A stretch of 64,000 nucleotides of DNA from Cyanidioschyzon merolae (GCA_000091205.1 AP006502.2), one strand, 5' to 3'; positions 3,972 to 53,780 are shown, counted from the first letter of the stretch. Notes: generated from the sequence alone by a model not told the origin. Translations and numbers: made by a program.

Positions 3972-4276
3972 TTAAGCCCCTGGAAGAGAAACTGATCAGC
4001 CGCTGTAAGCAATCAGCGCTGATTTGGACACCAAAATGCTCTACGCTAGTGGAGTAGGTGTTCAGCTTCCGTGGAAACCTGTAGCTGTTGCTGGTATGCG
4101 CTGCTGTCGACCAGCACGCATTATCGTTCGCTGCGTGCATGCAACAAATCAGCGCGCCGCTACGGCCGGCCTTCTTGCCGCGATCGCCGCTCGAGAGCGT
4201 AGCAGCCGACGTGGCAATCGATCTGCATCCGGGGATGCTGCGTGTCTGCGCGTGCACGCTAGCGCGATTGTGCCCT

Positions 4277-4540
4277 GCGCAGCGGTGCGATAGGCAGGTG
4301 GCATCCTTCCGATCTCTTTCGATCGACAGAACGTTTCCATGGACCAGAGGTGTGTGGACGTCGCTTCGCTGCGCAGCGGTGCGATAGGCAGGTGGCATCC
4401 TTCCGATCTCGTTCGATCGACAGAACGTGTCCATGGACCAGAGGTGTGTGGACGTCGCTTCGCTGCGCAGCGGTGCGATAGGCAGGTGGCATCCTTCCGA
4501 TCTCTTTCGATCGACAGAACGTTTCCATGGACCAGAGGTC
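4277..4540. repeat. 94-bp tandem repeat, about 2.8 copies
   Basis: The unit gcgcagcggtgcgataggcaggtggcatccttccgatctctttcgatcgacagaacgtttccatggaccagaggtgtgtggacgtcgcttcgct starts at 4277, 4371 and 4465, with 2-3 substitutions per copy. The third copy is truncated near 4540. Overlapping ORFs (3880..4434-, 4149..4682-, 4259..4546-) are just translations of this repeat. Confidence 0.9.
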
Positions 4541-12126: not shown

Positions 12127-15100
12127 GTAAACGAGGAATTTTGAAGCTAGGAAAGTTCGAAATGATGCGTAGGAATATCGATGAATGGAACACAACGATC
12201 GTCAACCAATTGTCGAGGAAACTCGTTACCAGAGGGTGTGCACAGGGCCGTCGCATTCTATCTCCCTTGGCTGCTGATTTGTTTCGCATCGAAAGTCTTC
12301 AGCGTTTCAGTGCAATGTCCAAACAGAGCACGAAACGAGCCAATGGAAATTTCTCTCGATGCAAAGCTGCTGGCCGCTTCGACTGCATAAGGCATTTCCG
12401 AATGCTGACCGCGACATTCAAGTTTCGGTGCAGAAAACGCTTCCACATATCGCTGCTTGTGGCGTGACAGCATTGCGAATCCTGTCGCCTTCGATTCGCG
12501 TGCCGCTTGAATTGCGCTCAGCTTACCGTACACCATCTCATGCTTCCGTCCGTATTTGACGCTCTTTTTCTCTACCTGTCACAACAACGCTCCCCTGCGC
12601 TCGTGATACGTGCATGCCGTCCTGAAGTTGCCGGTAGGAGTCGTGTAGAATCGATTTCTGGACTCGTTGTACGCTCTCGTTGGAGGAGCACGAGTGCAGC
12701 CTGCGCGTTCTGTAGCACCTCCATCGCCATAGGCTACCAATGAGCAAAGCGATGAGTCGGTTATTTCTTTTCCCAAAACTTTGAACAAAAATGATGAGTA
12801 TATATGGTTCTTGCCTCCATTCAGTGGACGTGGTCGGCGCTCGGAACGCGGCCTCACGAACTCCCTCCAATGAAGGTCCGCTTGAGGCGTTTAAAAGCGC
12901 TTGCACTCTCTGCATAATGTGTACAGAGCATGCCGTTCTGCTAATAGCGGAGCCCGTTGCGTCGAACCGGGTCCGAACACCGTCATTCCAATCACTGGTC
13001 TGGCTCCTGGTATCGCTCATGACTGACGCTCGACAACGCCGATCCCGGGGAGACTTGAGCCGCTTCAGACGCTTCTCGTTCACGTCTCTGGCACTGTCGT
13101 TTGATTTAGAGGCATGGCGACTGCCATGATGTACTGGAACACGGGACCCACGCTGCTAACGAGTTCTTTCTTTTCATCTGCCGCGAATGAATGAAAATGA
13201 GTCTCGTTGCTAAACTCAGGCCGATGCTTCGCAAACCGCGTGTAGATTGATATTCGAACAGTCTATATCCTGGTTGTACGCTTGTTAACATTTCCGGTTG
13301 GTGAACAAGTAAACTTGGAAGAATTCTGCTAATGCGCTTTGCGAAGTTGTCCGAGTGCTTCATATTTATGCGCAGAGACCAGCACCTGCATCGCCTGCTG
13401 CTCACCGCGGTTCCATGGATGTGATCGCTATACTCCATATTCGTGTTTTTCTCTAGATCGAGATGTACTGGTGGGCGTTAGGACCGGGACTTGCCTCCTC
13501 TGTGAATGTACATTTGGACTGTTCCCCGGGTACGTTAACGTCACCTTATGCGTCGCGTGCACGCGCTCGAGCCGCAGTCAGCCTTTTTGCTCCTGCTCGC
13601 GCAGCAGGATATCACCAGCAACAGGGCACGTCAGGGCTGGTGCAGGTGAACACAAGTTTCATCTAATGACGGTGATACGAATATGAACGACGTGTTTGTT
13701 GATCCTTGAATGTCGAACTGGCATTAGACGACAGAGAAGACCCATTGGACCGATGGGAACCGCACAGGGTCAGTTGGCACGAACAGCACATGCACCTCAA
13801 TCTCAGCGATGTATTCTTGGACCGCTTTTTATTGATGAGAAGCGACGTTGTCTAAGAGCAAGAGAGAAGAATCTGGCACGGGGAAGGCAGGAAGTGCTTC
13901 GACGACGAATGAGCTCCTGAGCCTGGCTTCCCGTTTCGGGAGTCGCACGCGACCACACAAAGCCATCCCGCTGGTGCTGATGTTTTTGGAACACCCGCTT
14001 GTCTCTTCTTTGCAACCAGCGGAATTTCTTCATTGTAAGTACCTATGTACAAGTCTTCCGTTTCTGCCGCATAGACTCTCATTGAATAAGACGAGAGCCC
14101 ATCGCTCGTTTCATGAGTGTTTGAGATTCGCCACAAAATTTCCAGGACGTTGTTGAATGCACTGCGGTCGCCCGTAAAAGCGTGCATATCCCTATGTCCA
14201 TCCTTCTCTCTTCATCAACGCCCAGATAAACGATACGCAGACTTCAGAGCATGTGGCAACTCTGGTAGAATTCTGTAGAGAACTTATGCTTGGAATCCAT
14301 TGATGTGGAGACGATCGTGTAGGCAGAGTTTCACAAGTTCAGATGTAGGTGTATGACGTCCTCGTTAAGGAGTGCGCGAAGCGTGGTTCTTCCACCCACC
14401 GCTCGTAGATTGGCGAACGCGTGGAATCAAGGTCGTTTTTCGCATATTTGCGGTGATAGCATAAAGTATCTTAACGAGCGCGCTCTCCAATCAACTGGAT
14501 AAATTCCTTTTGCTGAACACCTACGAAAACAATAAACGAAACAACGAAGCGTGTCGCCGCATGTCATCCATTACTGCAATACGCTTTGCGTATAGCGGTA
14601 ATCAAGGTGGCCTCTGGCGGCTTTCGCGTGCGTCCTTAGCGATGGTGAAGAGTCGAGGCTTTGAACCGACCAGCCACGTCGTGGACCGCAACAATGCGGA
14701 TACATCTGCCTTCAACGAGCATCATGTACGGGATCCATTCTTTATTGGATGTTCGGTAGAGCGATCGCACGGCTGGCGTGCAGTCCGGCTGATACCAGCC
14801 ATGCAACCACCAGCGAAACGGCACTGAAAAGCGCACATCTTACTTACACTACGTATCTGGGATGTAGGGTGGTAGTGCGTACCGGACCAGCACGAGGTAA
14901 TGTGCTTTGCGCAAGGACTGGGGCACGTCAACTGTTTTGGCGAATGTATCGAAAGATGCATCGCGTTGATGCCGGAAATGCTCTTCGAAGATTCAGAGCT
15001 TCCAACTGCTAGAGAATGCGCGCTATGAAACCAGCCATATACCCCTGTTCGCTGAAACCGAGGACCTCAGGAACACCGCCACGGCAAGCGGTTACGAGCC

Positions 15101-16964: not shown

Positions 16965-17200
16965 GCACGAAAGCATCCAGCGCCAGTGGCAGGCTGCATC
17001 GGAAAAGCACCCACACCCTGGGCGAGGAAAGCATCCAGCGCCAGTGGCAGGCTGCATCGGAAAAGCACCCGCACCCTGGGCGAGGAAAGCATCCAGCGCC
17101 AGTGGCAGGCTGCATCGGAAAAGCACCCGCACCCTGGGCGAGGAAAGCATCCAGCGCCAGTGGCAGGCTGCATCGGGAAAGCACCCGCACCCTGGGCGAG
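16965..17200. repeat. 58-bp tandem repeat, about 4 copies, ending roughly 115 bp upstream of the eIF2A start codon
   Basis: The unit cgccagtggcaggctgcatcggaaaagcacccgcaccctgggcgaggaaagcatccag starts at 16981, 17039, 17097 and 17155 with 1-2 substitutions. ORFs 16658..17221-, 16751..17299+ and 16911..17270+ are translations of this repeat. Confidence 0.9.
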
Positions 17201-17314: not shown

Positions 17315-19129
17315 ATGGATAGCGTACCTCCAGTCGCGTCGGAGCTGTTCATTAGGAGTCGCGAGTCCGCTCAAATAGTGCGGTTGCGACGACTCGCGTC
17401 TATCGAGGAAGACGCAGCGCGGCTGCAGCTCAGCGCTGACGCGGGGCTCGACACGGCAACGAGCTTACCCGGTGTGCCACCTGGCCTGGCGTCGAGTACG
17501 GTAGCGCAGTTTTCACTACCTGACGGCAACTTGTTGCTCTGGGTCGACCCCGACACCCGAGCCTGTACCGTTTTTCGAGTTGGTGCCCCGGGCGAGCCGC
17601 TCGAGCCGGTGACCCGAGTCGGTGGCACTGCCCAGGACGAGTTTATACAGGATGCCGCCTTTTCCCCGTGCGGGGCCTTCTTGGTGACCTGGTCTCGGCC
17701 GCACGAACGTTTGGCAGACGGAAACTTACGGATCTGGCGGTGCGCAACTGGCGAAGCGGTGCGGGCGTTTCCGCATCGACACCACAGCGCTACTGCGTTT
17801 CCGTACGTCCAGTGGACAGCCGACGAACGGTATGCCTTGCACGCAGTCGCCAACGCACTTGACGTCTACGATGGCTCAAAGCTGGAGCAACCACCCTTGT
17901 TGCGCATCGCGATCCCTGGTCTTGTGCAGTTTGCCGTCGCGCCGGAGGCAGTTGCTGCTGCGGTCGGAGCGTTGGACCTAGCGTACGTCGCTACTTTTGT
18001 TCCCGAAAGTGCGAACGGGGCACCCGCTGTAATTCAGGTCTGGGCGATCGGGTCCAGCAGTGCCATTCGTTCTCGACATGGAGAAGTGGACGGCTTGCCG
18101 GCTAGCGGCAAAGAGGCGCGCTGCGCCGTTCCTGTTGCGAGTCGGCGAGTATACCGAGCACAACATGTAGAATTCTACTGGTCACCGAAAGTTTACGGTT
18201 CTGGTAGCAGCCCGTCACTGGTGATACGCACTAGTCACGATTACGATGTACATGGTCGCTCGTACTACGGCGAATCGAGCGCCCACTTCCTGTACCTGGG
18301 GAATAAATCGGAACAGAGCAGGGAGCCTGCCAGAGATCCGGCATCGATGCCGGAGGGACCCATCCACGACATCGGTTGGTCACCGACTGGACGCGAGTTT
18401 GTGATCGTCCATGGGACAACGCCGGCGCGGGCGACCCTCTTTCACGGGACAGGCACGGCAACCTTTGATTTTGGAACCGGACCTCGGAACCGTGTCTCTT
18501 GGTCACCACACGGGCGCTTCTTAGCACTGGCCGGGTTTGGCAGCATGTCAGGGAACGTGCAGATATGGGATCGGAACAAGAAGAAACTGATCGGTCAGTT
18601 TCAGGCCGAATGCACCACGCACTGGCAGTGGTCTCCGTGTTCGCGCTTTTTCCTCGTGGGCGTTTGTTATCCGCGAATGAAGGTCGACAATGGATTTCGC
18701 ATTTTCAAGTATGATGGCACGCTCGTCTATGAGCGCAAAATGCCCACCACACAGCTCTATCAGGTCGAGTGGCGAGCACGAGTCCCGGAGCAGTTTCCGG
18801 ATCGGCCAGTGTCTCCGCAGGTATTAACGAGTATGCGCAAAATGGCAGAGCAGATGACTGCCAACACGGATGCTTCGCAAAAGGGAAATGGTTCCGTCGC
18901 CAGTGCAGTAGCGGGAAACCAGACGCGTCCGAGTGGCGCCTATATCCCACCGCATCTTCGACGGCAGGTTATTGAGAACGGTGTTTCGATGCCCCCGCTG
19001 AAACTCCACGAACACGAGGCACCTCAGAGTCTCGTGTCTGGGCCGTTCCTGACCAAATCACAACGCAAGAATCGGAAGAAGAAAGAACGGGAAGCTCGGC
19101 AACAGCAGCAGGATATACCGTCGGTTTAG
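17315..19129 (+). CDS. EIF2A: Eukaryotic translation initiation factor 2A (eIF2A; WD-repeat/beta-propeller protein)
   Basis: 604-aa ORF. It contains the eIF2A signature block FDFGTGPRNRVSWSPHGRFLALAGFGSMSGNVQIWDRNKKKLIGQFQAECTTHWQWSPCSRFFLVGVCYPRMKVDNGFRIFKYDGTLVYER, near-identical in pattern to human eIF2A (FDFGTGPRNAAYYSPHGHILVLAGFGNLRGQMEVWDV...APRLRVNNGYKIWHYTGS). It also has SYYGESSAHFLY, AYIPPHLRRQ and a Lys-rich C-terminal tail. Confidence 0.9.
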   Translation: MDSVPPVASELFIRSRESAQIVRLRRLASIEEDAARLQLSADAGLDTATSLPGVPPGLASSTVAQFSLPDGNLLLWVDPDTRACTVFRVGAPGEPLEPVTRVGGTAQDEFIQDAAFSPCGAFLVTWSRPHERLADGNLRIWRCATGEAVRAFPHRHHSATAFPYVQWTADERYALHAVANALDVYDGSKLEQPPLLRIAIPGLVQFAVAPEAVAAAVGALDLAYVATFVPESANGAPAVIQVWAIGSSSAIRSRHGEVDGLPASGKEARCAVPVASRRVYRAQHVEFYWSPKVYGSGSSPSLVIRTSHDYDVHGRSYYGESSAHFLYLGNKSEQSREPARDPASMPEGPIHDIGWSPTGREFVIVHGTTPARATLFHGTGTATFDFGTGPRNRVSWSPHGRFLALAGFGSMSGNVQIWDRNKKKLIGQFQAECTTHWQWSPCSRFFLVGVCYPRMKVDNGFRIFKYDGTLVYERKMPTTQLYQVEWRARVPEQFPDRPVSPQVLTSMRKMAEQMTANTDASQKGNGSVASAVAGNQTRPSGAYIPPHLRRQVIENGVSMPPLKLHEHEAPQSLVSGPFLTKSQRKNRKKKEREARQQQQDIPSV

Positions 19130-20401: not shown

Positions 20402-21230
20402 TTCGCTTCGATAGCGTCTGTGTGGAACACGGTATTGTACATAGCGAGCCAAGTACTGGCAGGAAGGTAGGTGAATCTACAGTGGAGATCAAGTCGAGAA
20501 ATGCCGATGTGTCCATACCCATTTGGTGCAACGCTGAGACGCACACCACCCTGGATGTGATCGCTGCTGTGACTCGAGCGCAAGTCCGTATCCCCTGTCT
20601 GTGCAGACGGAAGCTTCTCGGAGCGTCTGGGAGCGTCTGGGAGCTTCTGGGAGCGTCTAGGAGCGTCTAGGAGCGTACCACGTTAGCGGTATCGTGGTGG
20701 TGCTGTCGGATATCGTGACGTCGATGGCCACCAAGAGCGGAGCATTTGCCTTTCGAGCGGAGTCGATTTTTCCACGACAAGTTGAGTGAGCGCTCAGCAG
20801 CAGACGCGTATGAAAGAACGCCCCGTCGAGCAACAATATCGAGTGTGTTTCGTCGCTCGTCTAGGAGCACGAATCGCTGCGCCCCCTAGTTGCGTTGAAA
20901 CACCCGGGCTCAACATTTGAGCCGTGCATGCCCTGAGCATGCTACGCGTACCGGAAAGAGACGCGTGGACGCTTGTACGTATGCACTGGCTACTGGTGTT
21001 GGTTCCCGTACGAGTGCTTGCCCGATGACGCTGCACATGATGGTGATTTCGGTCACATAACAACGTCCCGTTGCAGATAGCTCCAGTAGCCACGCCAAAG
21101 CACCGACCCGGACTGCCGACACCACCCCTGCATCCATCATTGCTGGTTGCTGCTCTCGGAATCCCAATGCTTTACATCTAAACGATTCAGAAAGCATCCA
21201 AACTCGGAATAAGCGCACATCATTCAATAT
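20402..21230. repeat. Dispersed repeat, copy A (about 829 bp), direct orientation relative to copy B
   Basis: It aligns base-for-base with 25898..26707 (ttcgcttcgatagcgtctgtgtggaacacgg ... gcgcacatcattcaatat). There are about 6 substitutions, a 1-bp indel, and 2 extra units of an internal imperfect decamer minisatellite (ggagcgtctg/ggagcttctg/ggagcgtcta) at 20611-20680. It lies between the 3' ends of eIF2A and COQ2. Confidence 0.9.
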
Positions 21231-21255
21231 TCCATTTTACGCCAAACCGCGCGTC

Positions 21256-22554
21256 CTAGCCGGAACTCTGGGTGCCAACGACAGCCTCTGTATCCGTCGA
21301 CACTGGCACTCGCTGACGCCATGCATTGGCGCCTGCGATACCCAGCAACAGCACGAGTCCAGTAAGCGGCATACGACGAAAATGTCGCATACAATCCGCG
21401 GGATCATCGAGACGAACTCGCTGTATTTGATGGAAAAGCTGCGCACCTACCAACGTGACGCCCGCATAAAACGGCCACGGCTGTTCAGAAACTACCCCAA
21501 CGAGCGTCAAGCTTGCAACCATGCCAGCAGCAAAGCCCCGTAACCAGGTCTTGGCATGCACTTCGCCAAAACGCAGCGCAGTGGAGCCTACACCCAGCCG
21601 TCTATCCGTGTACTTGTCCTGGTGTGCGTAGATGGTATCGTAGACCAGGGTCCAGCACCAGCCGGCACCGTACAACGGGAGTACAACGCGCCACGCCATG
21701 GACCCGTCCGTAGCCGCAGACCAACCCAGCAACACACCCCAGTTGAAGGTGAGTCCAAGGACAGCCTGAGGCCACATGGTGACCCGCTTCGCCAGCGGAT
21801 ACAACGTCGCCGGCACCAACGCTGTGACACCCGTCAGAAACGTTGTCGAGTGGAGTAGGTCGCGGATCTGGTGCACCCCGAAGCGTTGAGCCCGCTGCTG
21901 AGCTGGCGTCGATATCCAGAGCAGGATCGGAAACCCCGCAAGCGTCTGTGCAGCCGCGAAACCGAGTCCCTGGCCTAGGTGAAGGCGTCCAGAAGCGAGC
22001 GGTCGTTGGCGAGTTCGGATAGTCTGCTTGTCGATGTCCCGGTCCCACAAGTCGTTTATGGTACAGCCGGCACCCCGTAGTAGGAATGCACCAGCCAAAA
22101 ACGCGCCTTGTAGACGGAGACTGCCCACAGGCGAAGTAGTCGGCTGTACTGGCGGCTCGGTGCCGTGGCCTGCGCTCGTTGTCGACTCGAGTCCAGCGGC
22201 CAGTGCGATGCTCCAGGCTCCTGGCAAGTAGAGCAGCCAGACACCAGTTGGTTTGTCCCAGCGGGCAAGCTGCGCGTAGGGCGCAACCCGTTGCACCAGT
22301 CTTGTCCAGAGTGACGGAGCAACCTGAACCATGACGCCAGCCGGACCGCGGCTACGCTCGTAGGGTAGACGACGAGTCGTCAGCAGAACGCCAGCGTCCG
22401 AGAGGTCGCGCACGTTTCCCCAAGGCTGACGACGTCCAACAACAACAACAACAACAACAAAAACAACAGCAGTGCCTATGGGTGTCGTTTCCCATGGTCT
22501 CGTGTGGAAGCACAGACGATGTTGCCGGAACCTGGCTGACTTCCAGTGAGGCAC
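21256..22554 (-). CDS. COQ2: 4-hydroxybenzoate polyprenyltransferase, mitochondrial (ubiquinone biosynthesis; UbiA superfamily)
   Basis: 432-aa ORF. UbiA motifs NDLWDRDIDKQTIRTRQRPLASGRL and WLLYLPGAWSIALAA are present, with multiple predicted TM helices. The N-terminal roughly 75 aa are Arg-rich and include a poly-Val run encoded by (GTT)n, consistent with a presequence. An internal Met (MVQVAPS...) is an alternative start. Confidence 0.85.
   Translation of the reverse strand: MPHWKSARFRQHRLCFHTRPWETTPIGTAVVFVVVVVVVGRRQPWGNVRDLSDAGVLLTTRRLPYERSRGPAGVMVQVAPSLWTRLVQRVAPYAQLARWDKPTGVWLLYLPGAWSIALAAGLESTTSAGHGTEPPVQPTTSPVGSLRLQGAFLAGAFLLRGAGCTINDLWDRDIDKQTIRTRQRPLASGRLHLGQGLGFAAAQTLAGFPILLWISTPAQQRAQRFGVHQIRDLLHSTTFLTGVTALVPATLYPLAKRVTMWPQAVLGLTFNWGVLLGWSAATDGSMAWRVVLPLYGAGWCWTLVYDTIYAHQDKYTDRRLGVGSTALRFGEVHAKTWLRGFAAGMVASLTLVGVVSEQPWPFYAGVTLVGAQLFHQIQRVRLDDPADCMRHFRRMPLTGLVLLLGIAGANAWRQRVPVSTDTEAVVGTQSSG
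22438..22469. repeat. (CAA)8 / (GTT)8 microsatellite inside the COQ2 N-terminal region
   Basis: The run caacaacaacaacaacaacaacaaaaacaacag is visible. On the minus strand it encodes VVFVVVVVVVV. Confidence 0.9.
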
Positions 22555-22693
22555 TTATCGTTGCGGGAGAAAGCGTCCGAATAGCGAGAACGTTGACCCG
22601 GTACTCGAGTCGTCAACGACACCCTTGACGGAGCACAGCGCTTTTTGCGGTATATGAGCGCAACTTGCGCGACGCTCGCGAGCCAGCCGCGCC

Positions 22694-25093
22694 CTACGGG
22701 TCATCACACGAGAGACTAGCGTGCTCCACGAGCCAGGTTTCGCAAGCGAGGGCAACCTCTGCTGCAGTTGGTCGCTCCTGTACACTCGGCTGCACACAGC
22801 GCCGTATCCAGTCGATAAGAAACGACAGCACCAGGTTCGCATCGGTCGAGGTCTCCCCAGGCGCTGCAGTGAGTGCGTCCAGGCGGTCAAGTCTGCCTGC
22901 ACGCAGTGCCTGCCACTCGTCTCCCTTTGTTGGTAACGGCTGCTCGGTAAGCAGCTCGTATATTGAGATGCCAAGTGCAAAGACGTCGACGGGGACGAGC
23001 GAGCCTAGCGGCGCCTCGCTCAGAACACTTTGACAGAGATAGCGTGAATCGCCTTCGCTACCGGTAAAGTCCGCGCCATCTAGACGACATGCAAGCCCAA
23101 AGTCCGCGAGCTTGAATACTTCCTGTTTCGTGGGCTGCTTCCGGAGCTGGAGTTGCTGATGCGGCTTCCGTACGCTGCCGATGAGCATGTTCTCTGGCTT
23201 GACGTCCATATGGGCAATGCCGTGCGCATGGCAGTGTGCCAGCGCAGCGGCTACATGCCCCAGCAGACGGACGAGTCGCAAATAATGCGGTAGCTTGGAT
23301 GCTGTGGTGAGACGCGTTCTGCCGGACAGCTGCATGCTGCCACCAGCACAGTACTCGAGCTGCAAGTAGAGACGCGTATCGTGCTCCTCGAACCAGGCCG
23401 TGTGATAGCGAACGATATTCTCATGGGCACCAACGGCAGCCAAGGCGTGTACTTCGCGCAACGCGTCGAGGCGATCGGTGCGACTCAACAGCGGTCTGGT
23501 GGTGCGTTTCACGGCGTACAGGCATCCGTCTGTACGATGGCGTGCCAACAGTACCTGGCCTTTGACACCGGACCCGAGGATCTGTACTTCCTCGAACTGT
23601 TGAAGGAAACGCGAAGGCGAAGAGGCTACCTCTGGGAGAAGCTGATTCGGGCGCAGCTGCGCGGACGACATCTCCGCTTTCGATGGCGTCTCGGGTTCAT
23701 CCGTACAAACCAGAAACGGATTGATAATGGGCGCACTCGTTGGCTGTGCTTCGCGATGACGCCCATTTTCTGTGCACTGGATCACATCACCCATGGCAAG
23801 AAAGGAATCCCTGAGCTCAGCAGCAGTAGCAGTAGCAGGTGCACGCCTTGATCCCCACAGGCTGCGGTGGATGCGCTCCGCCGCTAGTCCGTTTCCTGGA
23901 CCTGCTTCCGTCTGCGACTGGGTGCGCGCATCCGTATTCGCCCAGAGCGGGTTCTCAGTCGGACGTCGGGCTGATCGCGCCGGCACCTGGGATGTAATCA
24001 TCATCGCGTGATCGCGAACAAGTGTTGGGATTCCTGCTGTCACGGGACGTAGCTCGCTGAGCGACCCACCTGGTGCGCTATTGCCGTTCGCTACGGCCTC
24101 ATCGTCGCCAGCCTGGCTAAAGGTAATTCTTCCGACCACATCGGTCGATGTTCGTGCTGCCTGAACTGCCCTGCGACGTGCCAGTAGCATCCCGAGTGTA
24201 TCCTGAGACAAGACGGACGTCTGTGTATGCATCTGGGATGAGAAGGTGCTGCTCTCGGGAGCGTCCATATCAGCGGTGGCTACGGCTTGCGTTTGGTACT
24301 CGTGTCGCTGACTCTGTAGAGGCGGTCTTGGTGCAGAGAAATTGCTCTCTCGAGCTGGACACCAACGGCCGTTTGCACTGCCGTTTAATAGGTGCAGCCG
24401 TTTGAGCGCAGGCGATGGCGATGGTGGAGGTTGGCTCGCGCCCGCGCCCTGCTCCGGCGCGAGTGTACTCGACGCGTTCGAGTCCTCGTCTGCTGCTGAC
24501 GCCGCCTGCGAGTTCATCCAATTCGCATTGACCGCTGTTGCAATCGTGAACGTTGGTGTGCGATATATTCCAGCATCTAGTCCCATGGCTGCGTCCCGGG
24601 AGGCGCCCTCGCCGAGGAATGGAGTCGCCACAAACTCGGCACTGTTGACCGGGGTTTCGATGTCGGCAGCCTCGGGCGTGAGTCGCCGTGCCCCATGCGG
24701 TGTCGTGCCCCAGCTTATCAAGTCCAATCGAGGGAGCTCAAGTTTCGGTGTACTGACCACGAGTCCGGCTTTACGCTCGAGAACTTCTGGAATCGTGCGC
24801 TGGCGGCTGGGTCCGGCGCTCTCGGTCGTCGACCCCAAGGCTCCGAGGCGTGGTCGCTCCTCAGTCCGAGACAAGCGTCGTTTGCGTCCAACAGACGCTT
24901 CCGCAATGCTGTCCGTGTCCAATTGTTGACCAGGCGCCGCACTGGAGGTCACCAGCGCTGCTGGAAGGCGGGGCGTACCCAACCGGGAGGCACGTCGCAT
25001 CTTGAGCACTGCCGTAGGCGGCGGGCCCTGCTGGGCCTGCGTCTTCGACCTCACACCGACTCTACCCATATGAAGTGCAGGCCTCACCGTCAA
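22694..25093 (-). CDS. WEE1: Wee1-like protein kinase (Wee1/Myt1 family)
   Basis: 799-aa ORF. The C-terminal kinase domain is collinear with Wee1: FEEVQILGSGVKGQVLLARHRTDGCLYAVKRT (Wee1: FxExxxIGxGxFGxVFKxxxRxDGCxYAIKRS). The ATP-lysine comes before the glycine loop, which is Wee1-specific. It also has LREVHALAAVGAHENIVRY, HMDVKPENMLI, LADFG, and EGDSRYLCQSVLSE (Wee1: EGDSRFLANEVLQE). The N-terminal roughly 450 aa are a low-complexity regulatory region. Confidence 0.85.
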   Translation of the reverse strand: MTVRPALHMGRVGVRSKTQAQQGPPPTAVLKMRRASRLGTPRLPAALVTSSAAPGQQLDTDSIAEASVGRKRRLSRTEERPRLGALGSTTESAGPSRQRTIPEVLERKAGLVVSTPKLELPRLDLISWGTTPHGARRLTPEAADIETPVNSAEFVATPFLGEGASRDAAMGLDAGIYRTPTFTIATAVNANWMNSQAASAADEDSNASSTLAPEQGAGASQPPPSPSPALKRLHLLNGSANGRWCPARESNFSAPRPPLQSQRHEYQTQAVATADMDAPESSTFSSQMHTQTSVLSQDTLGMLLARRRAVQAARTSTDVVGRITFSQAGDDEAVANGNSAPGGSLSELRPVTAGIPTLVRDHAMMITSQVPARSARRPTENPLWANTDARTQSQTEAGPGNGLAAERIHRSLWGSRRAPATATAAELRDSFLAMGDVIQCTENGRHREAQPTSAPIINPFLVCTDEPETPSKAEMSSAQLRPNQLLPEVASSPSRFLQQFEEVQILGSGVKGQVLLARHRTDGCLYAVKRTTRPLLSRTDRLDALREVHALAAVGAHENIVRYHTAWFEEHDTRLYLQLEYCAGGSMQLSGRTRLTTASKLPHYLRLVRLLGHVAAALAHCHAHGIAHMDVKPENMLIGSVRKPHQQLQLRKQPTKQEVFKLADFGLACRLDGADFTGSEGDSRYLCQSVLSEAPLGSLVPVDVFALGISIYELLTEQPLPTKGDEWQALRAGRLDRLDALTAAPGETSTDANLVLSFLIDWIRRCVQPSVQERPTAAEVALACETWLVEHASLSCDDP

Positions 25094-25897
25094 CAGACTC
25101 GTTCAGGGACAGAATATGCGCCTTTCAAGTGCGTTCCGCGAAGAGGTAGACGCTGCTCGGCAAGCAAGCGCCAGAGCAGCGCTCAGAGAAAGCAGGCACA
25201 GCGCCGCACACGCCGTCCGGTCATTGGATTTTCGCGCGCGCCTCCAGACACGCGCAGGCGGCGATACGAAAAGCGCTGGCGGAGCGCGTCATGAGCCTAT
25301 GGATCGTTTTTTTGGATAAAGCAGGTAGGTACAGGTATCCTGGAGCATACTTACTCGTACAAGTCTAGGCCCGTTGTTATCAGAGCAAGATTTTGCTGGT
25401 TGTATCTGCAACTGCTCTCTGTTTCTCGCTTTTGGATCAGGTTTTACATACGATCGTCGCTTTGTTCTCTCGAGCTCTCGTATGAGCAGTGGGGGCATGG
25501 TGGTGGTGGCAGCAGCAGCAGCGCAAGTCCCGCTTCCGCTGCCTCCGGACGCTGGTTATGCGTTTGATATAGAGACCAAAGTCGCGATCGATGCTTCATT
25601 TGCAGCGTTCATCTGCATTGCTCGCAGTCTGGGTACGCCATTCGGTGCGGTGAGGCTTGCCAGCGATCCAGTACGCTGGTATGTCCATCACAGCTTTTGC
25701 ACTGGGGGCTGGCGCGCCTCTGCGGCGTGAACGCTTGCTTCATCGCTCGATATATGCAATTGATGTGTATAGGAGGTGGCGTCATATACAAGCTGCCTCC
25801 TTTCGGCACCTTGTGCCGTACGCTCTGATGACCAGCGTCTTCTAGGTGACGTCACCGACGAGTTCTCTGGATGTTGGGCGTGCAAGTGCACGCCCTA

Positions 25898-26707
25898 TTC
25901 GCTTCGATAGCGTCTGTGTGGAACACGGTATTGTACATAGCGAGCCAAGTACTGGCAGGAAGGTAGGTGAATCTACAGTGGAGATCAAGTCGAGAAATGC
26001 CGATGTGTCCATACCCATTTGGTGCAAAGCTGAGACGCACACCACCCTGGATGTGATCGCTGCTGTGACTCGAGCGCAAGTCCGTATCCCCTGTCTGTGC
26101 AGACGGAAGCTTCTCGGAGCTTCTGGGAGCGTCTAGGAGCGTCTAGGAGCGTACCACGTTAGCGGTATCGTGGTGGTGCTGTCGGATATCGTGACGTCGA
26201 TGGCCACCAAGAGCGGAGCATTTGCCTTTCGAGCGGAGTCGATTTTTTCCACGACAAGTTGAGTGAGCGCTCAGCAGCATACGCGTATGAAAGAACGCCC
26301 CGTCGAGCAACAATATCGAGTGTGTTTCGTCGCTCGTCTAGGAGCACGAATCGCTGCGCCCCCTAGTTGCGTTGAAACACCCGGGCTCAACATTTGAGCC
26401 GTGCATGCCCTGAGCATGCTACGCGTACCGAAAAGAGACGCGTGGACGCTTGTACGTATGCACTGGCTACTGGTGTTGGTTCCCGTACGAGTGCTTGCCC
26501 GATGACGCTGCACATGATGGTGATTTCGGTCACATAACAACGTCCCGTTGCAGATAGCTCCAGTAGCCACGCCAAAGCACCGACCCGGACTGCCGACACC
26601 ACCCCTGCACCCATCATTGCTGGTTGCTGCTCTCGGAATCCCAATGCTTTACATCTAAACGATTCAGAAAGCATCCAAACTCGGGATAAGCGCACATCAT
26701 TCAATAT
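25898..26707. repeat. Dispersed repeat, copy B (about 810 bp), same orientation as copy A
   Basis: See copy A. It is more than 99% identical to 20402..21230, and the decamer minisatellite has 3 units here versus 5 in copy A. It sits upstream of the WEE1 start. Similarity ends abruptly at both borders. Confidence 0.9.
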
Positions 26708-26887: not shown

Positions 26888-27508
26888 ATGGCTTGTTCGG
26901 CCTATACCCGCGCTTTAACCTATGTTGCTGGTGCCGCTGCTCAGCGTCCCTGGCGGGCTGCGCGCACGCACCGCGGCTCGTGGCGAACGCGTCGACAGCC
27001 GCGAGCGCACCCTCGTACATCGACCTGCTTCGCACAGCGAACTCGGTACAGGAGCGTTCGTCTGCAGGCCCCGTCTCCCGAAAATAACAAGAGCAACCGC
27101 GCGAACTCGCGACCTTCGACGAACCAAAAAGCGTCGTTGACGCCCAGCTTCCTGAGAGACGTCACTGATAGCAGCTTCTTCGCGGATGTGCCGTACCGGG
27201 AGTTCCAACAGATAGGACGGCTCTACCGCACGGTGGACGAATTTCTTGGCCGAAAGGAGAATCTCTTATTCTGGGGCTCGTGTGCGCTGCTGTTCGGAGC
27301 GTTTTCGGCTACGTCGATCTCAACGATCGTCGGTGCACTCGCCGAATGGGATCCCATAGCTGGCGCCGTCATCGTCTTTATCATGGAATGGATTGCTACA
27401 CAGTACTATCGCCGTCCTCGACCAAGCAATATCATTCGAATTTTGAATGCATACCAGGTCGGTCTGACTTTTGGGTTTATATTAGATGCGCTCAAGCTCG
27501 CTGGCTAG
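26888..27508 (+). CDS. Ycf20/DUF565-like small membrane protein with an N-terminal transit-peptide-like extension (plastid-type protein family)
   Basis: 206-aa ORF. The C-terminal roughly 90 aa are LLFWGSCALLFGAFSATSISTIVGALAEWDPIAGAVIVFIMEWIATQYYRRPRPSNIIRILNAYQVGLTFGFILDALKLAG. This fits the Ycf20 pattern as I recall it: two TM helices, a conserved WD, then a C-terminal ...LN.FK.GL..G.FIDAFKLGS. The N-terminal roughly 100 aa are rich in R/S/T/A and lack acidic residues, as in a plastid transit peptide. The family assignment is from memory, not from a search. Confidence 0.6.
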   Translation: MACSAYTRALTYVAGAAAQRPWRAARTHRGSWRTRRQPRAHPRTSTCFAQRTRYRSVRLQAPSPENNKSNRANSRPSTNQKASLTPSFLRDVTDSSFFADVPYREFQQIGRLYRTVDEFLGRKENLLFWGSCALLFGAFSATSISTIVGALAEWDPIAGAVIVFIMEWIATQYYRRPRPSNIIRILNAYQVGLTFGFILDALKLAG

Positions 27509-36288: not shown

Positions 36289-39243
36289 GCTGCGTCGGGC
36301 GACGTCACCGCACCTCGGGGCTCGGTGTCGGGCCGAACGCGGCGGATTCCGGTGTGCAGCGCCGAGTGCGAAAGCGCTGCCCGCACTGAGCCGAGGAATG
36401 AGGCCGCCGACTGGTGAACGGTGTTGCAACACCAGTGCTGCTCGCCGGTTCATGCGTCTTCTCGAGGTGAGCGGTTGACGACCATTGGCCTCGTCCGTGT
36501 CTATACCCGTGCTAGATGAACATGGAACGCTCAAGTGCTTGCTCTGATCCTGGTCTGCGCATTGTTTCCGAGCTTTCTTGGATGTACATTCTCGAGCGTT
36601 GAAGTGCATCAGGAGAGGCTGGAGGATTCATCCGTAATTTTGGGATTCTCGGTCGTTGCTCCCGAGTGGTGCCTTCGACGCGTTTGTCGCTGGCACTTGT
36701 TGCGTTACCGGAATCAAGACGGTTATCGACGATCTTGAGCAAGTGGTTGCAACATATACCATACACTGATTCCATCTATACATGCAAGCTTCCGCTCTTC
36801 TCCTTGACCTGCGCGTGACTGGCTGGCTTCCGGCCTGCTTCAAGTATTCGAGCTTGCGCTTTCAAGACGACTCGCGGGCGCAGGAATCCGCTTAGCTGGA
36901 TTGGTGTGAAAAGACATTCGGTGTCGAATTTTGCGCATTATTCACCAGCTGATACCGAATATTTTATTTCACTTTCCACGTCAAATAATCGATTCCGTTC
37001 CGAAGAAAAATCTTCCTCTGTTTGTGGCGAGCAACGAATTGGCATTCCACCGCAGCACGATGCCTCTTCCGTGGTATGCTCTCGGGCGCTCCGGTCTCTT
37101 CTGTTAGCATGCAGAAGGGTAGTGGGCTCGGACTTGGTCATCGCAGCGCTCGCTTCCTATCGCGAGTATATCATCGCTTCGCGTGGAAGAAGTGTAGATG
37201 GATCGAAATTTTTCGACGCCCCGCCTAGCCTAGGTTCCTTTCTGGTCCTTGATTCATCACGGGTAGCATCACGTTCCGCAAATCCTCAAACGAATGGAAG
37301 AGCGTGCCCTCGCGCATGGAGTGTACAGCGTATGCACCGAGGAGATACCCAGAAGAAGCCCATGATATCAGGGTACAGCTTGGGTCAAGAGGCACGAAGA
37401 AGGGCATCGAGGGGAACCTGCTGTACGCTTCAAGCGCTTCTACCGAGCGATGAAGCAAGCGTTCGTGCGCGACAGAGTCACGCTCGGAGGAGTTGGTATG
37501 GTAGCCATGTTGGAACACCTGACCACGATCAGGTGTCATCGCTGCGAAGAGCATACTCAGGCTGTATACAAAAAGATGGAAATGACAAGTAAAGCATAGC
37601 CTGCAACTACTGCCTGTGCATGCAATGTGTCGACACCGGCCCAAAGCGGCGAAATCGGGATTTAATTGCTGCCATGGAAATCATTCGGATGATGACAGCT
37701 GAGCTGGCGATAAAAGACAGACCAGCGCATCCAAAGCCGCGGGTAGGAGAGACAAAGGAAGCAGTCGCAGAACAAGTCCGCAAGGGCTTGTACTGATGGC
37801 AGCGAAAACAGACCCAGGCATTCGCGTGTACGCCCGAGTTAGAGGATACGTTCCATTCTATACTGATACGGGTGTAGAACGCACGAGCGCGTGCGACTAC
37901 TGCCCGTGAATAGAGCATAGCAGGGCGCGCGCAGGCACCAGAGCGTGTGCTCGGGAACTTTATGGTCAGTGGCTTGGCGGTCTCGCGGAGCAGGAAAGCC
38001 TCCATGGGCTCCTGCTGCCGTGCGCAAGGACCCGCCGATTTCTCTGGGCTTTTCGCCGTCTTGAGAAATGCGCATGCCTGCGCAGCGTAACTGCGTCTGT
38101 TGCTACAACAGCCTATCAGTAAACAGGAGGATGATGCATCATAATCACCAAATCGACTTGGTTTCATTCAGGGAATGATGGTATCGGTGCTTTCGAGTTA
38201 CACTTTCGACTAGAGAGCGTACCGGAACGAGCGACAGATACAGTGAAGTATCGCCGCGAACTACAAAACCGCCTGTGTATAGCGACGGCATTCAACAGTT
38301 TTTTTTGAAGTAGAATCGACGATGCAAACCAGAGATTCCCGGATGCGTGACGGTTACTGGCAACCGCAGAGCCCGTCGCAGCGCCGACCCCGACCCGCTC
38401 AGGTCCATTGGCCCCAGAACGAACATTTCTCCCGAAATAATGCATCGTTCAAACGATCTCCTGGGCACCGAGCATACCATGTGCGCCATTTGTGGCGTTC
38501 CAGACATCCTCCCGACACCGAACGACATTGCCATCCTTTTGCGGGCGTCGAACGACGGCTTCCGTGGGTGCGAGGTCGCTGCTCCTCGTGCACAGCATCC
38601 TTCACTCGTGTTTCCATGGCGTACGGCCCATACGTCGTATCAGATTCGCTTACAAAACGGTAAAGATGCCGCGACTTTGGTGTCTTCAGGGCCAGGCACC
38701 CACGCGTCTCTATATGGATTCGTCTGGGTGCAGAATCTTGTGAGCGAACCAGCGATCGCCGAGTGCCTCTGCTTCATGGCAGGCGTCGAATCGAGTGCCG
38801 ACTCCTGCACGGGCGATGGTGAGCCAGCCGCCACCGGACCATCTTGTCCAAGTTTGGCGATCTCGATTGGGTGCCATGTCTGATTTATACATTAAAATAC
38901 ATACTTGATCTTCATTGTCTAGGTACGTGTCCTGCGCAGAGCCCGCTACACTTCCAGTGGATCGCTGCGCTGCGGCGAAAGCTTCGCGAAGGCATCTAGA
39001 ATCTCAGGCCGTTTCTCGAGAAGCGCGCACCGAATAAGATTCTGTGGCCAGGATGCAGCGATCGATGCACACTGGTATGACTTGTACAGACTTGTACAGA
39101 ATAGGTCGACTTGGAACGCTGCTGGTCGATATCGGCGAATGGAAGTTTCGAAGCGCGCCGCATAGCGCTGAGCTCCGGTTACTCGAACTGGGAAGCTACG
39201 CAACGTTGACTGTTTTCAGAAGGCTTCCCGGGTCAAATAAGAG

Positions 39244-48419: not shown

Positions 48420-49418
48420 GTGACCTCGCGCAAGGTTGCACCTACCGAGGACCCCGCACCAGACGCAACACGCTGTCCAGACTTCAGGATCCAGTATCGA
48501 GCTCGGGTCTTTGAGTCGACACTAGCGAACGTGAACCCGCACATCACGCGGGTGACGGGACGACAAACGAGTGCACAACGCTCCCGGTGTCAAGGCAGCG
48601 TTCGTGGTCTGTGTGTCGACCAATTTTTTTTTGGGCGCGCTGAATACTGTGCTCCCGAGTTCAGCTCTTGGATGAGATCCGGGCGGCCCCGTGAGGAAAA
48701 AGGCCTCCGTCACTTTGCCGTTCGTATTTGCCACAAAGTCGAGCAGAAAGGCGAGACCACCTACAATGAGGTCGCGGATGAGCTGGTCGCCGAACTGCTG
48801 CAGGGAAACAATGGCGTAGCGCCGCGTGATCCGGCGAGTGAAGAGAAGAATGTGCGCCGTCGAGTCTACGATGCGCTGAATGTGCTGTGTGCTATCGGCG
48901 TGGTGCACAAAGATCGTCGCGCTGTCCGCTGGCATGGTCTACCTCGCGCCAGCGTACGAGAGCAGTCTCTCCTCGAGAACGAACTGAGCCGTCTGAGTTC
49001 GAGTGTGCGGGACAAGGACGGCCGGATCCAGCGATACCGCACAATTGTACGAGCGCTCGAGCGCCTTGTCCAACGCAATATGCGCGGTGCGGCGGTGGCG
49101 AGCAGCGGGCGCCCGCGCTCCGCGTCGCTACAAGGCGATTCGGCTGTTCGGCTGCCGTTCCTGCTGATCGCCACCGATCCGGATGCAGCAGTCGATATCG
49201 ACGGAGACGAACCAGGTTCAGATCGCTGCAGCTTCACCTTCAATCGCCCGTTCCAGGTGTATGACGCGGACGGCGTCTTACTGGAGCTGGACGCGATGAT
49301 CTGCAACTCGGGTGCCAGACAGGATAGCGCGTCGGTGCCCGCGACTACCAACTGTGCCTTGGGTTCGAATGAGGCATCGGCATCGGCGACAGCAGCAGCC
49401 AGCGAGCCTCCGCTATGA
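48420..49418 (+). CDS. DP: Transcription factor DP (E2F dimerisation partner; E2F/DP winged-helix plus DP dimerisation domain)
   Basis: 332-aa ORF. [34 protein letters not shown]...[32 protein letters not shown] matches DP1 ([34 protein letters not shown]...[32 protein letters not shown]). A dimerisation domain follows ([30 protein letters not shown]...[19 protein letters not shown]). The true start may be an internal Met. Confidence 0.8.
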   Translation: [332 protein letters not shown]

Positions 49419-49697: not shown

Positions 49698-52600
49698 CAC
49701 ACACGCATCCAGTTCTACTTCATCGGCGGCAACGTCGGCTGCGTTCGACGATCCATCGTGCGCGCTGCAGCGAGCGTCGGCATCCGAAGTAGCACCGCGA
49801 ACTGCGTTGTAGGCGTTCCAGGCTCTGCTTTGTATGCCGTCGTCTCATCGCTTAAAGGCGGGAACCGTTTACGTGCTTGACTAGTGGAAGCGCACGCGAT
49901 CGAATCTGTCACCCAAGCGCTGGGAAGCGTACGCGTGGATGCCAATGCCCGTAACGATGCGCTGATGCCTCGAGCGCCATGCCTGATGCGCTGCCAATGT
50001 CGGTGGCGGGTCAGAACCAATACGAACCGTCCAATGGACGACGCTATGCACAAAATGGAACGCCACGGCATCCGCTGCGCTCCGGCGGCGCCGTTATCGC
50101 TGCATCTATCTGCATGATCGATATGAACGAATCGAGTGCGTTCCACTCCGAGCAGCGAATTCTAGAACACGTGCACCAACACGCCTTTTTGATTTTGTTT
50201 GTTTTCCTCGCATGTACGCAATAAGAGCATCATATCTTGTGCCTAAGAGAATTGTCGCGGAAAGACTCGATGCTGTCGCTGCTATCGTACGAAAATCGGC
50301 CTTAGTTACGCAAGTCAGTGCTTCCACGTTGAGCAAGTAGATCGACGACCCGCGACTAGTCCCTGTGCTGGATGTCGCGCACCCAAAACAGAACGTTTTA
50401 AACGCTTTCTACGAGACTGCATCCAAGTCAATCCAGTTCACCCCGAAGTTCTCGTACAAGTACCACGAAAGAATCTATAGGACATGAAGTTTCTTTACGG
50501 AGCATACGAACGATAATAAGGAGACACGATGCTCAACGAGAAGCGCCCGCCATTACATGAGACCATGGCACCTTGAACAAAATTTCTATGTCTTTCTTAC
50601 TAAACAAGAACGCTGATTACAGGAGAGATGCGTCTTCAGCTCACTCGATGAAATATCGTTGAGCAAATATAGTAGATATGTACATTGATTCTCCAAGAGC
50701 CTTCATGTGCTGTTGGTAAAGAAGAGCTATGCGGGCACGCGGACAACATCATCCCTATCGGGAATTCAATCGCGTGGTCGCCTACAGACTGTTACGCGGT
50801 TAGGATTCTTCAATACCTCAATCTTCCTCGAGGAGCCTCCTGCCTTATTTCTGACCTGCTCACAGACAACGTGGTTTTCCATCACTCAAAAGCGGTAAAG
50901 CAGCTCGCGGTTGAGAAGAAGGCGGAGCTCGACCTCATGGGAGCGAGTCCTCCCTGGTTCAATCCCGTACAAGGCGATTTCTCTGCTGCGAAACGCCGTT
51001 TTTGCGCTTACGGATTCGTAGACGATTCGTTCGCATCGGTGACACGGAAGCGCAAACGGCGCTTCTGTGACAATTCATTCTCTACACTCGCCTTGATGGA
51101 CCTCATCGCGCAGCGGATGTTAGGAGTTCCCCACGCAGGGCTATCCGCAGTACACATTCCGCTGTAGGTTATGGAGCAAAGCTGCGTGCACGGCCATAAT
51201 TGCTCCTCGGCAAACAAGAAGCAGTACTGCTTGACTGGGGCATCACAGCGTTGCCTATACGCTTCCAAGAATCCCTTGGAATGTCGCCGTGCCACCTCGG
51301 CAATCGGCACATAGACAGCGCAGGTTCCAGCAAGTATTCAACGAACCTGAAATACCAGAATCTTTCGCAGGTCGGTCTCGAGCACTTCATGAGGTGCAGC
51401 ATTTGGACACGCCACCTTCATATTGCTGGCAAAGAAAAATCGGGACTGACAGAGCGATGCTCGGGGTGTTCATGGGCGCAAATAACGAGCTGATGGCGAA
51501 TGGGCTCGACGTGCTATCGAGTTCGGAAGCGGAGCCACAGCGAGAGCGAGAGAGTCGCTTTGGATCGTCCAAGCGCTTCGCGCAGCTGTGAACCCCGAAG
51601 CTACCAACGAAGTATGCAAGGCGTAATTGGAATGCCATATCTGCTTTCCTCTGATCTTGATCGACTATGTTATCGCGATGATGGCGCTACAGAGCATGGG
51701 ACACGCCCGACCCGGATCCGTGCGCCCAAGTCTCCACATGCGTCCATTTGATGTGGTCCAGATATGGCCAATCCACACATATGGTACTATTACGAGTGAT
51801 TCTGTGCTGTATATGCTCTTTAATGGCTAACCATGGTCTCCACAAGCAACTATGAAGCATTAGAAAACTCTGTGAAGAATGTTCGCGTAGCTCGTTCAAG
51901 GGATCCCTTTTGCAGCGAATTACATGGAAAGAAATTCTCATGGACGATAGCGATCGATAGAATATCGATTTGCGTTCATGCGGCAAAGATCTGGGCCTGT
52001 ATCGAGCACCGGGACGCATGCTCATTCATTCAAGGTTGACGAATATGGAGACAATGTGGCGGGCGTGAATCCCGAGTCCAAGGGCTCTCGGGCGTCGCCG
52101 TCCCTCCAAGTCAAGAGGACGGTGCCAGAGACCTGAACGGAAAGCAGATGAAGTCGCTCAAATTTTCCAGGACTCGCGATGATTGCGAGTCGGGCGCTTC
52201 AGACTCTGGGAGGCACACAAACAATACAAAGTGCCTGTCCATGGATCCATCTCGACGCTTTGAGCACCACATCGAGCGGAGAAGCACGTTTGTTTAGGCT
52301 TCATTCATGCAGTAGATCAGCGTCCAGATGTCTCACACGAACGATCTTTGGAGAAAGCAGATGAGACTGCGCTGCGCTGCGCTCGCCAATGCTCTCTGTT
52401 CCACGAAGGCAAGAATCGTGCATTCGTAACTCGGTCTGTGAATTGGAAAAGCATGCGAACGCAAAATCGCGTTGTTCCGTAATAGCATGTGGCGTTCTAT
52501 GTGCTGTGATACCCGAGAGCAGCACTCTCACTCGTTCAAGCCGAGCGTTTAACGAGTGCAGGAATCGGTTCCGCACGATTCCCATCCAAGAGTTCCAGAT

Positions 52601-53780
52601 GGCATCCACGCATACCGAACACTTGTGCATGATGAAAAAAGTTGAGAAGAGGAGCGTCTGACAGAGCCGAATGCATGAGATAGTACACGGTAAAATGAAC
52701 GAACTTCAGATGGCGAGGCGATCGAAAACGAGCGGCTTGGTGTATTGTGATTCCACCAGAGATTCTGTGCGCAAGCACTTGTTTTACACCGAATGTTTAA
52801 CGCCTCGATCAAGAGTCCGAAATATGTTTTACTCCAGTAGCGTCCAGTGGGTGTATAGCAGGCAAATTTTAGAGAGAAGCATCTAGAATTGAGAGTGTGC
52901 CAATTGTCGAGGCGATGAAGACTTGCATTAAAAAACTTCGAGGCCACGGGAGAGGCAATTGCATTCTCGTATGGAGCAAGGCAGCGGTATGGTAGGGGTC
53001 GAAATTCCAGAAAGACCGGGACGCTGCGTACACGCACCGTAAAACGCTTCCACGTCCAGTTGGTAAACGATAATCATGTTCCACCTTTACGTATTACCGA
53101 ATATAAACATTCATTGCCCTTACCCGCCGGAAAAACGCGTATCGTATGGTACCGTCGAGAGCGATGCCAAGTCGAGTTTTGTGCAACAGTCTCTGGGCAG
53201 CTTGCGTGACCTGGGCTTGATGTCTTCGATGCGATCGCTTCTGGCCGGTACGCTGTACACCGAATAGTCGAGGCGAGTCGCAGGTGTAGTACGCGGGCTG
53301 CGATTCAGGCTCGGAATCACCAGCGGCGAGAGCAGCGCGTTCTCGTGCCGCCACGCAGCTTCCGTGTCCGGCGGGATGCTGACGTCGCACGGCAAAAGCA
53401 CAGGCGACGTGGCGTCCAGTGGCATGATGCCCGAGAACCGGAAGCATTTATGCCCTCAAAGCTGGTGCAGTTGCCGGGAATCTTCTCCGGAGCAGCAGAT
53501 CATCGCCTATGCTGTAGGCGTGTTAACGAATGCTCACAAATGCCGTCCAGAATATCTCGATGGGCAAGCAATCCACATCATCCTCTGAAAGCGCGGGTCA
53601 CTGCGCAGGATCGTCTCCCAGCAGGATGTCGGCAGCGCACTGCTGTCCTCGCCTCGCTCGAAGCGAGCATTCACCCAGAACCAGGGTATGCAAGGACGTC
53701 GTGACGGACACTGGGCGTTGCGCTGAAGCCTCCGCTGCCGATTGCATCGCGCCCAGCGATGCAATCGGTACCGAACCGCT

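Follow-up and report, generated by a model that had tools for sequence, protein, structure and literature searches.

Why should two stretches of non-coding DNA, set on either side of a pair of genes, have stayed more than 99% identical to each other? This question is raised by a locus on chromosome 20 of the red alga Cyanidioschyzon merolae 10D, which we analyzed in a window of 64,000 nucleotides (nt), meaning the whole stretch of DNA studied here (from AP006502.2 of assembly GCA_000091205.1), in whose positions all coordinates are given. In this window two repeats of about 0.8 kb enclose the genes COQ2 and WEE1, the order along the window being eIF2A (CMT586C), repeat copy A, COQ2 (CMT588C), WEE1 (CMT590C), repeat copy B, and ycf20 (CMT591C). 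A reading made from the nucleotides alone (the sequence-only reading) had ascribed the likeness of the copies to a very recent duplication or to ongoing gene conversion. We consider it probable that the two units are a locus-specific, two-copy, non-coding low-copy repeat that arose in the Cyanidioschyzon lineage after its split from Cyanidiococcus and before the sampled wild populations diverged, and that has been homogenized by gene conversion. We found no description of this 0.8-kb repeat in the literature.

The repeat in strain 10D and in wild populations

Copy A (20402-21230, plus strand, 829 nt) and copy B (25898-26707, plus strand, 810 nt) were identified as direct repeats by three methods that agree with one another, namely repeat finding, pairwise alignment with MAFFT, and blastn (1377 bits, E = 0). 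Their orientation, their exact ends and their identity of more than 99% are those that the sequence-only reading had given. At the left end, gtttgg in A and gcccta in B are each followed by TTCGCTTCG, and at the right end TTCAATAT is followed by tccatt in A and by gctgta in B; homology stops sharply at both ends, and the flanks beyond are unrelated. The copies differ by five substitutions (at 20532, 20803, 20954, 21133 and 21208), rather than the approximately six counted earlier, and by the two indels already described, one of 1 nt in a T run and one of 20 nt in which two 10-nt units of the minisatellite GGAGCGTCTR are gained or lost. This minisatellite lies at 20612-20676 in copy A (plus strand, about 6.5 units) and at 26108-26152 in copy B (plus strand, about 4.5 units), and among wild copies the array varies by five 10-nt units (a region of 65-115 nt). 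The starts of the two copies are 5496 nt apart, and the unique DNA between them (21231-25897), which contains COQ2 and WEE1, measures 4667 nt, as the 4.7 kb previously reported had implied; recombination between A and B would delete or duplicate this segment. No third copy of the unit was found in the window with blastn. Over 112 nt, the minus strand at 36984-37092 is weakly similar (67% identity, E 0.004) to positions 259-370 of the unit, which is probably due to chance.

Wild contigs bearing this locus were collected by exact-protein look-ups in public metagenomes and sequencing runs; they are approximately 99% identical to the window, and each was counted once. The whole layout of eIF2A, copy A, COQ2, WEE1, copy B and ycf20 is present in a 114.6-kb contig (L006, from JGI metagenome 3300005573) that is 99.3% identical to the window. 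Across about 45 independent contigs, the unit has identical ends and only four flanks, with copy A crossed together with both of its flanks in 15 contigs and copy B with both of its own in two (L006 and L017). Three contigs join the left flank of A to the right flank of B through a single unit, and the reciprocal junction, leading from the left flank of B through a complete unit to the right flank of A, occurs in none of the approximately 45. Many short-read contigs end inside the unit or 30-141 nt into it, and in others (L010-L015 and L048-L050) the cassette stands alone with short repeat stubs at both ends; such breakage is what is normally seen where a repeat exceeds the reads in length. 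When the metagenome contig collection was scanned, a 30-mer from the unit matched the COQ2-WEE1 locus only. Furthermore, a homologue search with the 105-amino-acid (aa) open reading frame (ORF) of the unit returned a single tight cluster of 16 sequences with no diverged relatives, and the contigs holding the commonest member of this cluster all have the copy A context. As far as wild populations show, the unit is a two-copy repeat restricted to this locus.

Divergence of the copies and their origin

The wild copies fall into two haplotype groups, which are told apart by about six sites located in the right half of the unit, and within each group the copies in the A context and those in the B context both carry the variants of that group. 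Copies A and B differ from each other at 5 of 748 sites within 10D, at 2 of 749 within the 114.6-kb contig (whose two minisatellites are identical, idiosyncratic, and seven units long), and at 1 of 666 within the second haplotype group. When the same copy was compared between 10D and the second group, differences were seen at 11 of 748 and 9 of 666 sites, and between the 114.6-kb contig and the second group at 4 of 749 and 7 of 666. Copies inside one lineage therefore diverge by 0.15-0.67%, and the same copy across lineages by 1.0-1.5%. In several assemblies, contigs anchored in A and contigs anchored in B end 127 nt past the last distinguishing site, indicating that A and B are identical further in. 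Because the copies are present in all sampled lineages, and the lineage variants are common to A and B, the duplication predates the split of the lineages and sequence has been exchanged between the copies since. Comparison of the copies points to concerted evolution by gene conversion, and not to recent duplication, as the source of their similarity. Of the two explanations first offered for this locus, conversion is thus the one retained, as the divergence is lower within than between lineages, whereas recent duplication is at odds with the presence of the repeat in every lineage sampled. The argument for conversion is strongest near the right edge of the unit, where sites linked to the flanks lie within one read length.

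In the mechanism that we propose, non-reciprocal homologous recombination between copies 4.7 kb apart would repeatedly overwrite one with the other, with the consequence that identity between the copies remains above 99% even as the unit drifts between lineages at an ordinary non-coding rate. Frequent conversion would homogenize the copies in this way, and it fits an organism in which homologous recombination is highly efficient, as has been reported for C. merolae (PMC8504449). A reciprocal crossover between A and B would instead loop out or duplicate the COQ2-WEE1 segment. The loss of both genes from a haploid cell is presumed to be lethal, so that conversion products alone would persist; crossovers deleting COQ2 and WEE1 would be removed by selection in the haploid phase, and the reciprocal duplication, if it occurs, would be unstable. 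The potential for loop-out that the sequence-only reading had raised is sound in principle, in that recombination between direct repeats has been demonstrated experimentally in 10D, where cassettes placed between duplicated terminators are excised in this way (PMC8504449, PMC13353863).

The locus can also be compared with those of the sister genera. The order eIF2A-COQ2-WEE1 is found in Cyanidiococcus yangmingshanensis and Cyanidium caldarium too, and, judged by this conservation, it is the ancestral order and the arrangement is not an insertion. A sensitive blastn search of the Cyanidiococcus and Cyanidium loci aligned coding regions only and gave no similarity to the unit, and no analogous flanking repeats were found at either locus. 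In the telomere-to-telomere genome of Cyanidiococcus NIES-4659 Ha1, the genes run CMT602 - DP - SIR2 - ... - CMT592 - ycf20 - DP - WEE1 - COQ2 - eIF2A (PMC13353863, supplementary tables), an order collinear with that of C. merolae apart from an additional copy of DP in the spacer between WEE1 and ycf20 (PMC13353863). In C. merolae, DP (CMT601C, the E2F partner; 48420-49418) is single and lies beside SIR2, as it does in Cyanidium; a tblastn search of the window with the Cyanidiococcus DP matched 48672-49316 only, and no DP pseudogene was found there. Since the WEE1-ycf20 spacer holds a DP copy in Cyanidiococcus and the unit in C. merolae, it has gained a local ectopic duplicate independently in two genera. 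By analogy, and with less certainty, we infer that copy B is the derived copy, which may have been deposited when a break in this spacer was repaired from an ectopic template. As a whole, we think it quite unlikely that this spacer is a conserved break-prone site in Cyanidioschyzon-like algae, with recurrent capture of nearby DNA, that COQ2-WEE1 is an excisable cassette giving a loop-out circle or a tandem duplication in wild diploids, and that the three contigs that skip it are real.

The DP duplicate has itself taken part in rearrangement, as it appears from a comparison of two further Cyanidiococcus assemblies. The locus of one (L018, 18482-20776; GCA_026122185.1) has the same DP arrangement as Ha1, and in the other (L059, 8592-10822; GCA_013995675.1) the DP on the WEE1 side is followed by SIR2, not by ycf20, the homology between the two loci ceasing 1.47 kb upstream of DP. 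It looks as if the block from SIR2 to ycf20 has been flipped between these assemblies by recombination of the inverted DP copies; a few inversions between Cyanidiococcus strains have been noted (PMC13353863). No sharp drop in identity clearly marks the inverted repeat of Cyanidiococcus, the last 283 nt having only tandem-repeat indels and a mildly higher mismatch rate. From L059 we had also considered an inversion of about 22 kb relative to Cyanidiococcus, with a breakpoint at copy B, and this candidate was dropped once Ha1 proved to have the C. merolae gene order and L059 to be the flipped isomer. A DP copy adjoins WEE1 in Cyanidiococcus, and in C. merolae DP is about 23 kb from WEE1. As WEE1 has been reported to peak at G1-S (PMC11231608), the adjacency of DP might matter for regulation in Cyanidiococcus.

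Several observations weigh against a repeat homogenized by conversion, or against parts of the history proposed for it. Metagenome assemblies cannot phase the 0.8-kb interior of the unit, and some of the sharing of variants between A and B could be path mixing. In copy A of 10D, the substitutions at 20803, 20954 and 21208, together with a 1-nt deletion in the T run near 20766, were found in none of the wild copies, whether in the A or the B context; copy B of 10D resembles the wild consensus. These private variants are either mutations that have accumulated since the last conversion or errors of an old reference, and hence either no very recent conversion took place in copy A of 10D or the reference is at fault there. 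The variants were not confirmed, as the Logan contigs that carry the COQ2 protein of 10D belong to strains approximately 99% identical to it and not to 10D. Further, more diverged copies may be present elsewhere in the 16.5-Mb genome of 10D, our searches having covered the window and the wild contigs, and that C. merolae cannot do without COQ2 and WEE1 is an assumption. Finally, the spacer between eIF2A and COQ2, once copy A is subtracted, measures 1297 nt, which is close to the 1327 nt of Cyanidiococcus and would fit A, rather than B, as the inserted copy.

Alternative explanations for the similarity and the layout

The positions of the two copies relative to the neighboring genes bear on whether the unit might have a function. 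Copy A lies in the convergent (3'-3') spacer between eIF2A (17315-19129, plus strand; Pfam eIF2A; exact match to BAM83495.1 of C. merolae 10D) and COQ2, which encodes a 4-hydroxybenzoate polyprenyltransferase of 358 aa (21256-22332, minus strand; Pfam UbiA, E 3e-48; exact match to BAM83496.1; start and stop codons checked), and it is 1272 nt past the eIF2A stop codon and 25 nt past that of COQ2. Copy B lies in the divergent (5'-5') spacer between the gene for the WEE1 kinase (22694-25069, minus strand; 791 aa counted from the first ATG; Pfam Pkinase, E 4e-39; codons checked) and ycf20 (26888-27508, plus strand; Pfam DUF565; exact match to BAM83498.1), and it starts 828 nt away from the ATG of WEE1 and ends 180 nt short of that of ycf20, lying upstream of both genes. 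Locus tags were taken from published gene tables, and CMT590C corresponds to XP_005539533.1, which is WEE1 (PMC11231608). The sequence-only reading had correctly named COQ2 and WEE1, whose UbiA prenyltransferase and protein kinase domains agree with the annotation. Its statement that the repeats precisely bracket this gene pair calls for qualification, as copy A comes within 25 nt of COQ2 and copy B is nearer to ycf20 than to WEE1. With A in a 3'-3' spacer and B in a 5'-5' spacer, the two copies occupy functionally opposite settings.

It is unlikely, in our judgment, that the unit serves as a terminator, promoter, insulator, unannotated transcript or other functional module whose copies are kept alike by selection, whether instead of conversion or besides it. 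Copy A, starting as it does just past the COQ2 stop codon, must hold the 3' end of COQ2, and copy B makes up the bulk of the ycf20 upstream region, from -181 to -990; from these positions, both copies are probably transcribed or used in part. The tags CMT587 and CMT589 are also missing from the protein-coding series, so that non-coding features may be annotated nearby. However, a role common to two such opposite settings is hard to name, and we found no evidence of a function common to both copies. The divergence of the unit between lineages is comparable to that of the flanking spacers (97-99.5% identical), and purifying selection therefore does not explain the similarity of A and B. The unit moreover contains a hypervariable minisatellite, gives no fold signal, and has no similarity in the sister genera, and selection alone would not put lineage-specific variants in both copies.

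The unit was also considered as a structured non-coding RNA or a small protein gene, and this candidate was rejected for want of any Pfam, Rfam or tRNA match, coding constraint or fold signal. The ORFs of the unit had no Pfam matches, Rfam and tRNA searches of the unit gave no match, and the fold of either strand was no better than that of shuffled sequence (z-scores 0.19 and 0.01). A 76-aa ORF called by metagenome pipelines contains seven variable sites, of which six are at first or second codon positions, and an exact-protein look-up with this ORF of copy A found no record. An RNA-seq-based reannotation of 2026 places no additional gene from CMT563C to CMT592C; by number, the closest of its new genes are CMX226C, beside CMT562C/563C, and CMX227C, between CMT592C and CMT594C.

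We regard it as distinctly improbable that a very recent duplication without gene conversion has left the copies alike simply because they are young. In its favor, the difference between A and B, at 0.67% of sites in 10D, is small, and the repeat is in no outgroup. However, both copies are present, with identical ends, in every wild lineage sampled, including those that are 1.0-1.5% from 10D in the unit, and the variants that define the lineages are common to both copies. A duplication older than the split of the lineages should leave the two copies at least as different from each other as the lineages are.

Gene conversion being the explanation that we favor for the likeness of the copies, the question arises whether crossovers between them have left products as well. 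The three contigs that skip the cassette, reading from eIF2A through one unit to ycf20, are L001 (ENA ERZ27249350), L004 (JGI 3300025503) and L034 (JGI24721J44947). These are most simply read as assembly paths rather than alleles: the locus forms, in an assembly graph, a repeat node with a loop, and assemblers commonly pass such a loop by. It is very unlikely that they are real, as deletion alleles formed by loop-out in heterozygous diploids or as the counterpart of a cassette carried as a 5.5-kb circle. Three independent assemblies do give eIF2A, a single unit and ycf20, and in a short-read graph a chromosome with both copies looks the same as a chromosome with one copy accompanied by a circle. 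C. merolae is known to be capable of pop-out, and wild strains, which are diploid, could be heterozygous (PMC13353863). However, sibling assemblies hold the cassette with its stubs or the left-flank junction of B, as expected of loop skipping: L017, from the same JGI24721 project as L034, has that junction, and L048 and L049 (ENA, with accession numbers near that of L001) have the cassette as a contig of its own of 4936 bp. The reciprocal junction is in no contig, and the 0.8-kb unit exceeds any read, leaving the joins without direct support.

The sequence-only reading had further suggested that the units might be two members of a dispersed family, such as solo long terminal repeats (LTRs), short interspersed nuclear elements (SINEs) or miniature inverted-repeat transposable elements (MITEs), to which the LTRs of a gene-capturing element may be added. 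The size and direct orientation of the units resemble those of an LTR pair, and interspersed repeats exist in the C. merolae genome (PMC1955436), in which LTR retrotransposons were not found (PMC1955436). We nevertheless hold an origin as mobile elements to be highly improbable. The unit begins TTCGCTTCG and finishes TTCAATAT, so that its ends are TTCG...ATAT and not TG...CA, and inverted repeats are absent from 18-29 kb of the window; the absence of gag/pol between the copies, of TG...CA ends and of terminal inverted repeats had been recorded before and is upheld here. No target-site duplication was found at A (gtttgg/tccatt), at B (gcccta/gctgta) or at the outer pair (gtttgg/gctgta). The unit contains neither a tRNA-like signal nor an Rfam family match, and it ends in CAATAT, not in the A-rich tail of a SINE. 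The four flanks seen in about 45 contigs, the 30-mer scan confined to this locus and the ORF search without diverged relatives all speak against a dispersed family. The interior, moreover, consists of the host genes COQ2 and WEE1 in the ancestral order of three genera, and because these genes adjoin eIF2A in the same order and orientation in the sister genera, the cassette was not brought by the repeats.

An assembly artefact, in which a single real copy was duplicated or mis-joined in the reference, would be in keeping with the trouble that short-read assemblers have at this locus (the cassette is bypassed in three contigs, and many others are broken at the unit), but is hardly conceivable given a reference for 10D that is finished telomere to telomere (PMC1955436), copies that differ at five sites and two indels, some of them linked to the flanks, and the recovery of all four flank junctions in many independent samples and of the full layout in the 114.6-kb contig.

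Other repeats in the window are distinct from the unit. A low-GC (45-54%), ORF-poor stretch of 3.2 kb just past DP (50000-53200) has a degenerate ORF in common with 12474-12780 (tblastn, 37-38% identity, E 9e-9), and both probably belong to a 3.2-kb interspersed element of which 253 copies have been described in the C. merolae genome (PMC1955436). A 58-bp tandem repeat of four copies (16969-17200, 98% identity), separated by 115 nt from the start codon of eIF2A that follows it, varies in unit number among wild contigs; L001, for example, has two fewer units. A 94-bp tandem repeat (2.8 copies, 97% identity) is present at 4275-4539.

Significance and comparison with known systems

The repeat around COQ2 and WEE1 is a genuine low-copy repeat and a recombination substrate, and as such an instance of a known phenomenon, in a genome nearly free of such repeats. 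The near absence of repeats from its genome and the high efficiency of its homologous recombination are the reasons why C. merolae serves as a minimal model eukaryote. With a 0.8-kb direct repeat naturally in place around two single-copy genes, rates of conversion and crossover could be measured in this alga without engineering. In practical terms, when CMT588C, CMT590C or CMT591C is edited, homology arms that contain the unit may target the wrong copy or provoke pop-out, and short-read assemblers can be misled, as shown by the three public metagenome contigs that lack COQ2 and WEE1 at this locus. The parallel with the inverted DP duplicate of Cyanidiococcus hints at a spacer subject to recurrent ectopic repair, which, if confirmed, would bear on the ways in which compact genomes are rearranged.

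Low-copy repeats, such as the human CMT1A-REP pair that flanks PMP22, are substrates of non-allelic homologous recombination and evolve in concert. Like CMT1A-REP, the C. merolae repeat consists of two direct, non-coding copies around unique genes, with a very high identity maintained by conversion and a potential for deletion and duplication; it has identical ends in all contigs that cross it, is found at one locus, and has copies that are closer within a genome than between lineages. However, the CMT1A-REP copies are 24 kb long and flank 1.4 Mb, whereas those of C. merolae are 0.8 kb long and flank 4.7 kb. The C. merolae genome is, in addition, streamlined and in the haploid phase, with no verified rearrangement product, and a cell that lost the enclosed genes would probably die.

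The sub-kilobase size of the copies, their direct orientation and their spacing of a few kb also recall an LTR pair, but the unit lacks TG...CA ends, a target-site duplication and gag/pol, and its interior consists of ancestral host genes. The DP duplicate of Cyanidiococcus yangmingshanensis offers a further parallel, as it too is a local ectopic duplicate and a recombination substrate, and is located in the same spacer between WEE1 and ycf20. Unlike the C. merolae unit, however, that duplicate is inverted and gene-bearing, comes from a source about 20 kb away, and drives inversion in place of deletion or duplication, and the two have no sequence similarity. A likeness in both organism and geometry is that to the cassettes engineered in C. 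merolae, in which a URA or CAT-HSVtk marker is placed between two copies of a terminator (PMC8504449, PMC13353863), so that direct repeats of a few hundred bp surround a few kb of DNA. The COQ2-WEE1 repeats differ from these cassettes in being natural and in enclosing housekeeping and cell-cycle genes, so that excision, for which the engineered cassettes are selected, would here be selected against.

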